Below are positions 740-41,055 of a stretch of 41,055 bases of DNA, piece by piece. The stretch comes from a virus. Its lineage: Duplodnaviria > Heunggongvirae > Uroviricota > Caudoviricetes. The stretch lies in the IMG/VR virus record IMGVR_UViG_2529293142_000021, positions 1 to 41,055 of that record. One strand, written 5' to 3'. The first letter of the stretch is position 1, and each line of letters opens with the position of its first letter. Made by a program: the position numbers and the translations under genes. The notes below the pieces were generated by a model. The model saw only the letters and a program-made list of their open reading frames with translations. It made no database searches and was not told the DNA's origin.

Positions 740-1867
740 TTAAACTGATACTTTAATCCAGTCCTTTCCGCGATCATCGTGGTATCGGTCCGTTTGCCTT
801 TGCGATTTGTGCCCCAGCAATTCTTTAGTATCAATACCCTGATCGCGGTAGAGTCGTTCTGCTAGTGATCTTTGTTCATGAAATGTGGCTGGAGTGCCGT
901 CGCCCCAGTCAAGTGCAGCCTGGTCGCGCGCCTTGCTAAAATTCATCGTTAGCGTGTTAGCCTTCACCTGTGCCCCGCGTTCCGCTTGCGAAGTTGCGCG
1001 AAAAAAATGCACGAGGTAAGGGCTGACGGCATAATCACGGCAGCGGGCGACAACTTCGCGCAAACTCCAATTGATTGCATTACAACGGAGCGCCAGTGGG
1101 ATTGCGACCTTACTCCCTGTTTTTTCCTGCACTACATGCAGATGGTCATCCCAAATATCAGTAAATTTCATTCTTGATATATCGCCTAATCGCTGACCTG
1201 TCACGACAGCAAGTAGCATGGCGTTGCCGAGGTATTTGTGAGTGGCGTCGGCAATATCAAAAATCTTCTGCCATTCTTCCAGGTTCAGGCGTTGCCGGGT
1301 AATTCTGCGCCGAGGCTGTTTAGTTGCCAGTGCAGGGTTGTGCCCTGGCGGAACCTCGCCAGCGTGTTGAGCCTCTTTGAAAACGTCAATGAGCACAGAG
1401 CGGATAACCTGCGCCATTCTGGGCTGGCCCGCAGAAAGATATTGGTCCAGAATCTGCGCTATGTCCCGAACCGTGACATCTGTTATTAACCTCATGCCAG
1501 CGGCCTCACGTAATAGATTCACCGGCTTAAGTTTTTGTTTGTGCGTATTGACCTTAATATCATCGATCTTTAAACGCTCGTCTTGTATTTTCCAGTATCG
1601 GTCCAGCCAGGTGTTAACAGTAATAGCGCCGCCTTTGCTGGTGGAAATGAGGTCTGTAATCGCCTGGACTTGCCTGGCGTGCTGTTCAGCGATCCGCCTG
1701 TTCGCCTCAATTGCGATTTCCGTAGCGACCGTTTCATCAGTGCCGAGTGCATGAAATTTGCCGGTAATCGGGTGCTTGTATCGCCAATAAATTTTTTTAG
1801 ATTTCCGGCTATACAGAGGGTACAGGTTAGGGATTTTTACGTTGTTTTTACGTGGTCTGGCAGCCAT
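740..1867 (-). CDS. int: tyrosine recombinase, phage integrase
   Basis: 375-aa ORF; C-terminal LLGHKS...TDRY tyrosine-recombinase signature; overlaps the xis-like gene as in lambda; same length as I recall for e14 IntE. Confidence 0.9.
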   Translation of the reverse strand: MAARPRKNNVKIPNLYPLYSRKSKKIYWRYKHPITGKFHALGTDETVATEIAIEANRRIAEQHARQVQAITDLISTSKGGAITVNTWLDRYWKIQDERLKIDDIKVNTHKQKLKPVNLLREAAGMRLITDVTVRDIAQILDQYLSAGQPRMAQVIRSVLIDVFKEAQHAGEVPPGHNPALATKQPRRRITRQRLNLEEWQKIFDIADATHKYLGNAMLLAVVTGQRLGDISRMKFTDIWDDHLHVVQEKTGSKVAIPLALRCNAINWSLREVVARCRDYAVSPYLVHFFRATSQAERGAQVKANTLTMNFSKARDQAALDWGDGTPATFHEQRSLAERLYRDQGIDTKELLGHKSQRQTDRYHDDRGKDWIKVSV

Positions 1868-38977: not shown

Positions 38978-39040
38978 GGCAAATTGTCGGGAGTTTTTCC
39001 CCATTTATTCCCCAATAATTCCCCGTACAAAAACAGGCAT

Positions 39041-39067
39041 AAAAAAACCAGCCGTAACAGGCTGGTT
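39041..39067 (-). terminator. rho-independent terminator, minus strand
   Basis: Minus-strand ACCAGCC tgttac GGCTGGT followed by TTTTTTT, directly 3' of the tRNA-like fragment. Confidence 0.5.
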
Positions 39068-39080
39068 CTTAAGGTGTTTT

Positions 39081-39133
39081 TGGTCGGCACGAGAGGATTT
39101 GAACCTCCGACCCCCGACACCCCATGACGGTGC
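39081..39133 (-). other. tRNA 3'-half fragment (anticodon arm CAU, T-arm, acceptor 3' strand, CCA)
   Basis: Minus strand reads GCACC GTCATGG GGTGT ... GGAGG TTCAAAT CCTCT CGTGCCG A CCA. No complementary 5' acceptor strand or D-arm upstream, so not a complete tRNA. Confidence 0.4.
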
Positions 39134-39300
39134 GGGGCGTTCGGTGTTTGCATTTTGCAATTTTGCGAAAATGTAAATTAATTGTATTAATGCGTCATTA
39201 TCTGCAGATTTATAAGCCTGCCCCGATGAAAAAGCGGTTATCAAAACTCAAAAAGAGTTATCGCAAAACAAGCACTTGCAAACCATCTCAAATGATGTGA

Positions 39301-39332
39301 TTTATTAAAATATTTCCTGATATTTTAATAAA
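39301..39332. repeat. perfect 13-bp inverted repeat near the prophage-chromosome junction
   Basis: TTTATTAAAATAT ttcctg ATATTTTAATAAA, about 35 bp before the icd-homologous junction. Confidence 0.4.
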
Positions 39333-39364
39333 TATCAGTTAGTTGAAATTAAACCATCAAACTA

Positions 39365-39529
39365 CTGTTACGCCATATGGGCTGGACTGAAGCCGCAGAC
39401 CTGATTGTTAAAGGTATGGAAGGCGCAATCAATGCGAAGACCGTAACCTATGACTTCGAGCGTCTGATGGAAGGCGCTAAACTGCTGAAATGTTCAGAAT
39501 TTGGTGATGCGATCATCAAGAACATGTAA
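39365..39529 (+). pseudogene. icd: 3'-terminal fragment of isocitrate dehydrogenase gene (icdC-like)
   Basis: Translates to [53 protein letters not shown], which is the Icd C-terminus; no upstream icd sequence. Typical of e14-type integration at icd. Confidence 0.85.
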
Positions 39530-39552
39530 TCACTACATGTGTTTAATATTGC

Positions 39553-39584
39553 AACGGGCGTATAACACGCCCGTTGTTTTATTT
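39553..39584 (+). terminator. rho-independent terminator after the icd fragment
   Basis: AACGGGCG tataaca CGCCCGTT followed by a T-run. Confidence 0.6.
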
Positions 39585-39631
39585 ATGTAGGTATTATTAA
39601 TAGCATATCGAGCATATTTATATAAAACCCT

Positions 39632-39955
39632 TTACTTGAGCCCATATGGGCATATTTTTATAATGCAACTATTATGCAAACATTTATTTGTTATTTTTCT
39701 TTCTCCTGGAGGACACTCTTGACTGCTTTTGAGTAGACTCCATAAATCCTTGTTGAATGGTGCGATGTTATAAATAGTAATAGGATATTCTTTATCTTTA
39801 AGGATAATTCCAGATTTAACCGGTGTAAATATACTGCCAGGAGGGAGAAATATAGTAGATTGATACCAGATGATCATTTTCATATTACCCCATATGGCTG
39901 AAAAAGATATGCCGCATGAAGGTTGAATTATCGTGTCAATTACTATCCACTTCAT
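39632..39955 (-). CDS. iraM: IraM-like anti-adaptor protein
   Basis: 107-aa [21 protein letters not shown]...; matches my recollection of K-12 IraM, which lies just beyond icdC; low GC. Confidence 0.5.
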
Positions 39956-40412
39956 TTGTTATGTCTTATCCCACGGTATTTAATATAGTTCATTTGGATG
40001 TTCATTTCTTTATTTTGCATATGAGTATATTACCCCTTCAAAAAATAAATTAATTAAAACGATTGCTTATATAAAACAAAATTTAAAGCAAGGAATCTCA
40101 ATGGATGTTAAACAAAATGAGATTTAGTGAAAACAATAAATTATTCACTTCGTTTTAGATTTGTTTAGCTATAATGTTATACATTCAAATGACTGAACAT
40201 CCTGTAATTAAAACATAGCCTTTATGCTACTTTGTGCCAATTTGCTAAACATTATGGTTGCCTTTTTATATAACGATAATAATGAATATAAGCATGACAT
40301 GAGAATAAGGTTTCAATTTTTGAGTTATATAGGAAAGGTTTAACCTGTTCCTGGCTAAAATACATATAACTGGATGATGACTAAACCAAAACACATGTGC
40401 GTTAAGTATTGA

Positions 40413-40445
40413 AACGGGCGTATGGCACACCCGTTGTTTTTATAA
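40413..40445 (+). terminator. second copy of the icd-type terminator segment
   Basis: ACATGTGCGTTAAGTATTGAAACGGGCGTATGGCACACCCGTTGTTTTT is homologous to 39530-39584. Confidence 0.4.
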
Positions 40446-40650
40446 ATATATTAACCGTTATAAAATAACGTATAGAAAGTCAAGTGATCACATTTCAAAT
40501 ATCAATTTGATAGTATTGGCATGGTGATTATTTATGGGTAGCAATAAAAGGACAGTATTTATCATCCATAGGGATAGTCTCTGTACTTTTATTCCCATTA
40601 TGCTAATGCCTTACTGAATTATGAAGCATTTCTTAAGCATCCAACTTTAG

Positions 40651-41055
40651 CTAGATTAATGGTTTATTATTTTCTACATCTTCAATATATAAAAGCGTAT
40701 TATCAATGGCGTAGTAACTGCGTTTGTTATGATTAACATCAGTAACCCACCGGAAAACGCCCGCGCCTGCTAGTGTTGAACAGTATTCCCGAAATGTAGA
40801 TTTTCCGCAAATATGAAGCAATGCGGCCTCTTTTATTTTAGCAGGGTTCTTGGTCGTACTAACTTTTAACAGGTTCCTGGTTCCTCTTAATAACAAAACC
40901 GTGTCATCGTGAGTAATAATTCTGATGTTATCCGTAGCCAGATAATAAATGTAATGTGCAATACGGTGATGTTTTAATTCTGAATAAAACCAGGAGAAGT
41001 TTTGCTCTTTTCTCACTTGCTCAAACATCTTTTGAAAAACAACGACCTGATCCAT
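40651..41055 (-). CDS. ycgX: YcgX-like hypothetical protein
   Basis: 134-aa ORF whose start codon sits exactly at the window end; AT-rich; position after the iraM-like gene matches the K-12 order icdC-iraM-ycgX as I recall it. Confidence 0.45.
   Translation of the reverse strand: MDQVVVFQKMFEQVRKEQNFSWFYSELKHHRIAHYIYYLATDNIRIITHDDTVLLLRGTRNLLKVSTTKNPAKIKEAALLHICGKSTFREYCSTLAGAGVFRWVTDVNHNKRSYYAIDNTLLYIEDVENNKPLI

Follow-up and report, generated by a model that had tools for sequence, protein, structure and literature searches.

The window, by which we mean the whole stretch of 41,055 nt (41 kb) that was analysed, ends on its right in the icd–ycgX region of Escherichia coli and Shigella, on the attR side of a prophage. 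Read from left to right, this end holds tail genes, a tRNA-Pro fragment, a phage P arm, a junction at 39365/39366, the end of icd, the icd terminator (T1), iraM, ymgK, a second terminator copy (T2), ymgL and ycgX. Positions 39366-41055 are 100% identical to the corresponding sequence of the prophage-free E. coli strain ECCRA-119, and likewise to that of S. flexneri SFBU0723. The chromosomal flank consists of ymgL (40488-40598, minus strand), which genome comparison showed to be common to iraM-positive and iraM-less genomes, and of ycgX (40651-41055, minus strand), a DUF1398 gene recognised by its translation and by Pfam.

Near the opposite end of the window we found int (740-1867, minus strand), whose product is a lambda-type tyrosine integrase by its Pfam domains (Arm-DNA-bind_1 and Phage_integrase) and by its identity to annotated e14-type IntE (80%); identity to phage 21 Int is 58%. 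With int so close to its start, the window must contain nearly all of the prophage, and attL should be situated just upstream of base 1. The first ORF (1-696) is a DUF7424 cargo gene between attL and int, and cargo in this slot is also present in the e14-family prophages that we examined. The tail region encodes Tail_X and GPD domains and a tail-fibre N-terminal domain, and includes P2-like tail genes (X, D). No full-length relative of positions 1-39364 was detected in a search of 5426 complete E. coli genomes. To the right of the tail genes, 39039-39134 (minus strand) corresponds to the 3′ part of a tRNA-Pro gene with its downstream hairpin and matches, at about 90%, the tRNA-Pro locus in every complete E. 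coli genome; ARAGORN detected no whole tRNA at these positions. Judged by sequence similarity, the phage, which now uses icd, seems to carry here the fossil of a second attachment module, namely a phage-borne 3′ end of a tRNA gene. The module sits just outside the icd-type P arm and has no part in the icd story.

The displaced 3′ end of icd, an icdC-type pseudogene, occupies 39365-39529 (plus strand; 165 nt, 54 codons plus stop). An Icd C-terminal fragment followed by its terminator had been recognised here by a sequence-only reading of the window, and our data bear this out. Positions 39377-39529 translate into 50 residues of the C-terminal part of Icd, and genome alignment places the start of uninterrupted icd identity at 39366, within the attR junction or core region (39355-39376, plus strand). 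In other genomes, RefSeq annotates the equivalent stretch as an incomplete isocitrate dehydrogenase without its N-terminus, and the fragment is as long as the copy in phage 21 and other icd phages. It is followed by T1, the intrinsic terminator of icd (39535-39584, plus strand), in which the terminator scan located a hairpin at 39551-39577 and then a T run. T1 folds at -13.8 kcal/mol (z = -4.6) and has the GC-rich hairpin and T run, on the plus strand, of a rho-independent terminator; the annotation of phage 21 marks the equivalent structure as a terminator. Seen from the opposite strand, T1 follows the iraM stop codon at a distance of 52 nt. Homology between icd phages and the chromosome begins at the core and breaks off exactly at the T run of the terminator. 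In Rfam, the T1 region (39534-39604) also resembled the tpke11 family of sRNAs, but its 26.4 bits stay below the gathering score of 43, and this is probably a mere hairpin resemblance.

We aligned the P arms of about 30 icd prophages. In the window, putative arm-type integrase sites, GGTTATCAAAAC and AGTTATCGCAAAAC, lie at 39237-39270 (plus strand), their function being suggested by motifs common to the e14 arms. The motif GGTTATCAAAACTCAAAAA is common to the P arms of the window and of e14 and recurs in e14-family P′ arms, as does TTATCAAAA. A core-proximal block, CATC(A/T)AACTA(C/A)TG, is common to the window and e14-class P arms. For the comparison of IHF sites the consensus WATCAANNNNTTR was used: the IHF-like motif adjoining the core of the window, TATCAGTTAGTTG (39333-39345, plus strand), agrees with it at 12 of 13 positions, and perfect matches (TATCAATGACTTG and TATCAAATAGTTG) stand at the same position in the phage 21 class and in strain 268.2.

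Between the arm-type sites and the core-proximal IHF-like site lies a perfect inverted repeat (39300-39333, neither strand being assigned). Its two arms, 39300-39313 and 39320-39333, are 14 nt each, 100% complementary, composed of A/T pairs only and separated by a 6-nt spacer. The sequence-only reading had described it as a perfect 13-bp repeat at 39301-39332 flanking iraM; the repeat is real, but its arms are 14 nt long, and it belongs to the P arm of the present prophage instead of flanking iraM. In a repeat search of the whole window, every other perfect inverted repeat with a loop of ≤10 nt was shorter. When the local 234 nt were dinucleotide-shuffled 2000 times, not even a 13-nt repeat arose, and folding of the repeat gave z = -5.7. 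The repeat is absent from e14, phage 21 and the other P arms in our alignment of icd prophages, and no relatives of the P arm that contains it were found in IMG/VR or in complete E. coli genomes. Because the repeat lies within the P arm and is unique to the resident phage, we regard it as a feature of the attachment region that is unrelated to iraM. In lambda, Xis and Fis sites occupy the corresponding interval of the P arm. By analogy, the inverted repeat is probably a candidate binding site for an accessory protein of the Xis or Fis type.

Taken together, the alignments show that the icd fragment marks the attR of a prophage of the e14/phage 21 type. This prophage, with its lambda-type integrase of the e14 family, recombined with the chromosome inside icd. 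It would have supplied a substitute icd 3′ end and terminator at attL, as in e14 and phage 21; a phage-borne icd 3′ end with its terminator was indeed seen in related phages and prophages. The host's last 54 icd codons and T1 were thereby stranded as a pseudogene at attR (39365-39584), and the P arm of the resident phage contains the inverted repeat, the IHF-like site and repeats of the GTTATCAAAA type. The arrangement at icd/icdC of E. coli K-12 is the known parallel (Hill, Gray & Brody 1989, as cited in PMC13626634 and PMC6379469): there, according to these papers, e14 provides a new end for icd, and the original host end is found beyond the prophage. Like e14, the window phage is integrated inside icd, would supply the last ~165 nt of the gene and leaves a displaced host 3′ pseudogene beside iraM, and it shares with e14, besides the related integrase, the GGTTATCAAAACTCAAAAA block and the core-proximal block of the P arm. 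Unlike e14, it has P2-like tail genes and a different P-arm interior, which contains the inverted repeat. Phage 21 and related lambdoid icd phages likewise carry an icd 3′ pseudogene, which has an annotated terminator; P′ arm sites and int come next. Phage 21 differs from the window phage in its more distant Int and in arm-type sites of another type (CCCCAAAA).

Beyond T1, 39632-39955 (minus strand) is identified as iraM: its predicted product is IraM, the RssB anti-adaptor, by 98% identity to proteins of that name, and the gene is annotated as such in matching genomes. IraM ties PhoPQ (low magnesium) signalling to RpoS stability (PMC4045071 and related papers). Genome annotation and base composition delimit an AT-rich region upstream of iraM (39956-40397, minus strand; GC 23-32%), within which ymgK is annotated at 40208-40252. 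The T1–T2 segment has a GC content of 23-35%. Homologues with 57-71% identity to IraM were found in the slot between Q and holin genes of lambdoid prophages (loci L004, L005, L020-L027 and L065-L066) or in an island-like context, in one case with IS21 and ProQ genes; all other members of the IraM family that we examined belong to phages or islands. In the Stx2 prophage loci (L004, L005 and L020-L023) the IraM-family gene lies directly downstream of stx2B on the opposite strand, and the remaining lambdoid-prophage genes adjoin lpxR or psiE. Homology between chromosomal iraM and the phage copies is confined to the coding region, which counts against reading iraM as a phage relic. Earlier work found iraM in Escherichia and Shigella only, and variably present there, reported it in K-12 and not in CFT073, assigned it to e14, and placed iraL on the potB island of CFT073 (PMC4045071). 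The gene in the window resembles iraL and the iraM-like genes of Stx2 and other lambdoid prophages in belonging to the same protein family and in being strain-variable accessory cargo; unlike those copies, chromosomal iraM is fixed beside icd in most lineages.

On the far side of iraM, the sequence-only reading had pointed to a second, diverged copy of the terminator at 40395-40445. Alignment to T1 confirmed this copy and placed it at 40398-40440 (T2, plus strand): 39538-39580 and 40398-40440 are identical at 36 of 43 nt (84%), with a spacing of 860. A direct repeat of target-adjacent sequence, T1 and T2, hence flanks the insert on both sides. The 28-nt core of the terminator, with ≤3 mismatches allowed, occurs in the window at these two places only, against 0 expected. 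T2 is decayed. The terminator scan made no call on its plus strand in this window, and its fold (-5.9 kcal/mol) is no better than that of shuffled sequences and falls short of a terminator here. The weak fold results from a stem mismatch; in other lineages T2 has kept a perfect stem. MAFFT alignments seemed to extend T2 leftward into icd coding sequence, but anchored tests gave 22 of 39 matches, a value reached by 14% of shuffles and by 216 of 1588 real AT-rich segments. As this is within chance, the repeat in the window comprises the terminator only, and no significant icd coding remnant was detected before T2 in this window. The stretch to the left of T2 is instead homologous to another part of the divergent allele described below. 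Matches to T2-type sequence in IMG/VR were all over-extended prophage calls with the same chromosomal context, and matches of the terminator query in the phage database were ordinary terminator copies only, none of them of the T2 type.

Comparison of icd loci across genomes revealed a presence/absence polymorphism of 860 bp bounded by the terminator copies. Prophage-free genomes have the order icd-T1-iraM-T2-ymgL-ycgX with identical sequence, and the iraM segment is carried by 3873 of the 5426 complete E. coli genomes. The occurrence of T1-iraM-T2 in genomes that lack the prophage shows that T2 is separate from the resident prophage. The sequence-only reading had named native occurrence of T2 in prophage-free genomes as the finding that would speak against its proposal of an older integration; T2 is indeed fixed in such genomes, a result that excludes the present prophage as its source and is silent on an older event. 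In a further 1037 of the 5426 genomes, which lack iraM, icd is followed by one terminator only (T0), and the 860 bp that elsewhere separate the two copies are missing. They include CFT073, SE15, NGF1, Nissle 1917 and the type strain ATCC 11775; many iraM-less strains, of the kind of CFT073, Nissle 1917 and the type strain, are ones that we take to be phylogroup B2.

As far as the T run, T0 resembles T1; beyond it, the sequence is that of the flank which follows T2. All single-terminator sites have the T1-type loop, and a chimeric single terminator with a T2-type loop was found in none of the 5426 genomes. Repeated deletions by T1 × T2 recombination would predict such chimeras, so their absence counts against that model. 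Compared with the common allele, iraM-less genomes show about 3% divergence in the ymgL–ycgX flank (12-16 differences over 210 nt of its noncoding part), which does not exceed the variation among iraM-positive alleles, whereas the flank of the divergent allele differs by 20-40%. The iraM-less state thus lies inside iraM-bearing diversity. One iraM-less strain, SB0258h1, is only 4 of 210 nt away from an iraM-positive strain. These comparisons suggest that the iraM-less genomes probably lost the cassette by recombination between T1 and T2; the alternative is that they never possessed it. Polarisation by outgroups was attempted with a scan of GTDB species genomes for YcgX. Homologues of ycgX with 77-81% nucleotide identity were recovered at a locus other than icd in E. 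ruysiae, E. whittamii, Escherichia sp. E1V33 and SCPM-O-B-8794 (L013-L016); that of E. ruysiae (L013) stands among ORFs resembling YedE/YedF and FliE/FliF, near fliE. With the outgroup ycgX away from icd, the ancestral state of the icd flank is not directly readable, a point that weighs against an older integration at icd and was also counted in favour of iraM-less genomes that never possessed the cassette.

By way of an IraM homologue with 74% amino-acid identity, we reached a divergent allele of the icd locus, present in 19 complete E. coli genomes, in which the terminator copies stand about 6.3 kb apart. Its order is icd, T1′, an approximately 40-nt P′ arm, a hypothetical gene, an IS5 remnant, trkG, iraM′, an ariR-like gene, T2′, ymgL′ and ycgX′, as for instance in E. 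coli R32_14_1F (L069, 10105-17067) and at locus L032. The region upstream of iraM in the window is 73% homologous to that upstream of iraM′. Directly after T1′, about 40 nt match the pattern of e14-family P′ arms, GTTAG(C/G)CTGCTAACGGTTATCAAAATTTTATCAAAA. Directly before the hairpin region of T2′ stands ATCAAGAATATGT, which equals the last four codons of icd and the first base of its stop codon, collinear and identical at 13 of 13 positions. The local alignment scores 22, and none of 3000 shuffles reached this value (mean 9.3, maximum 19). T2 and T2′ share TTAAGTATT; T0, T1 and most phage copies have TTAAATATT. The common base implies that T2 and T2′ are orthologous and that duplication of the terminator predates the split of the common and divergent alleles. 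To judge from these alignments, T2 and T2′ are descendants of a copy of 'icd end plus terminator', and the common allele has apparently lost the icd-end remnant before T2 through a deletion of about 230 nt. The identity of the long allele to the common one is 65-87% and ends abruptly inside ycgX, a breakpoint that points to homologous replacement from a distant lineage, whole alleles being swapped by exchange. Pfam and PADLOC analyses of the cargo genes of the long allele and the window yielded nothing useful.

We propose that two layers of integration are superimposed at icd and that T1-iraM-T2 is the scar of an event much older than the resident prophage, a reading to which we assign a probability of roughly two in three and which rests on the comparison of alleles. 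Long before the present phage, an e14/21-type element would have entered icd and pushed the host's own 3′ end and terminator aside, of which T2 would be the vestige. The cargo of this element would have included an IraM-family gene near its attL end, in the slot that present e14-family prophages use for cargo. Through later deletions, int, the phage body and the P arm would have disappeared, together with almost the entire displaced icd sequence, leaving iraM and its promoter region. T2 would still adjoin the original downstream flank (ymgL–ycgX), and T1, now beside icd, would descend from the terminator copy brought by the old element. Much later, the window prophage would have reused the icd site. 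T1 and T2 now bracket the 860-bp iraM cassette as direct copies, and recombination between them would excise it cleanly. At least two integrations at icd, with iraM on an older relic, had already been proposed by the sequence-only reading; the other alleles support this proposal, but T2 in the window retains no significant icd coding remnant. Two further points weigh against the two-layer reading. Between T1 and T2 there is no phage-like content other than iraM in the window and the common allele, and neither an integrase nor other phage genes or arm sites were found there in the window. In addition, the P′ arm remnant after T1′ could stem from a third, later prophage and not from the event that brought iraM.

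That T2 came from the present prophage event, or that the two terminators resemble each other by chance, can hardly be true. Proximity is all that speaks for it, T1-iraM-T2 being identical in prophage-free genomes and an identity of 36/43 having 0 matches expected. A more serious competitor, which we nevertheless consider rather unlikely, holds that the single terminator is ancestral and that the iraM cassette arrived later, either by homologous replacement, one crossover falling in icd and the other in the terminator, or because an element inserted site-specifically at the terminator. T2 would then be the copy of the donor or element and no scar of E. coli, and an older integration at icd, if there was any, would have taken place in the donor lineage. 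Every single-terminator site is T1-like up to the T run, as an untouched native site would be, homologous replacement is evident at this locus from the breakpoint of the long allele in ycgX, and iraM is variably present and reported only from Escherichia and Shigella (PMC4045071), all of which suits such an import. Set against it, the flanks of iraM-less genomes fall within iraM-positive diversity, down to the 4 of 210 nt that separate SB0258h1 from an iraM-positive strain, and the order iraM-T2-ymgL-ycgX is common to an allele diverged by 20-40%. Moreover, if the crossover took place after the gene, there is no known reason for the att region to be homologous further upstream, and no phage or viral contig has T2-type sequence outside the chromosomal context.

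Local events without a mobile element, the terminator having been doubled by slippage or unequal crossing-over and iraM acquired by unrelated illegitimate recombination, seem very improbable to us. The repeat in the window is short (~43 nt) and covers only the hairpin, as such events would have it, and hairpins rearrange readily, as the flipped loop and IS200 insertions of SB0258h1 (see below) illustrate. However, local duplication explains neither why T2′ is preceded by 13 nt of icd coding sequence nor why T1′ is followed by an e14-type P′ arm remnant, and it leaves the prophage- or island-like contexts of the IraM homologues without a reason.

An attR with an icd pseudogene is textbook e14/phage 21 biology, and the variable presence of iraM has been published (PMC4045071). 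The terminator duplication that bounds iraM, the single-terminator allele and the long allele with its remnants are undescribed in the few papers on iraM, e14 and icd that were searched, and a full-text literature search for iraM together with icd and prophage returned no paper. Our placement of iraM outside e14 and every present-day icd prophage, and in prophage-free strains, contradicts that of PMC4045071. On the two-layer reading, iraM is likely to be all that survives of a far older element that used this attachment site, and a history of this kind would explain its clean absence from CFT073, Nissle 1917 and the type strain. A known parallel is DLP12, an eroded ('grounded') prophage with a 47-bp argU repeat that keeps a displaced att fragment (PMC6379469). 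As in DLP12-type remnants, a direct repeat of the 3′ end of the target brackets AT-rich foreign cargo, and the interval is absent in some strains. In contrast to them, erosion around iraM is near complete, with one gene left, the repeat is a terminator hairpin, and a younger prophage occupies the site. The locus would be a small, clear case in which reuse of one attachment site leaves nested scars; it adds another example to the well-known erosion of prophages at sites used more than once, and no new mechanism or kind of system.

A more far-reaching idea, which we put forward as doubtful, is that iraM behaves as a minimal recombination cassette that is dropped or regained by homologous exchange, so that a prophage scar, and not an active mobile element, sets its presence across phylogroups. 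If this were true, phage homology, IS200 insertion and cassette turnover would repeatedly meet at one boundary, the icd terminator, and the presence or absence of an RpoS stabiliser across E. coli phylogroups would be set by a scar.

In SB0258h1 (L019, 2528-4050), two copies of IS200C directly follow the T run of the single icd terminator, and the terminator loop is flipped, GTTAT replacing ATAAC. The hairpin edge hit by IS200C coincides with the end of phage–host homology and with the end of the T1/T2 repeat. Finally, matches to the icd fragment at 20 places, and to the iraM segment at 8, lie on records typed as plasmids in the E. coli genome set (ecoli_genomes).
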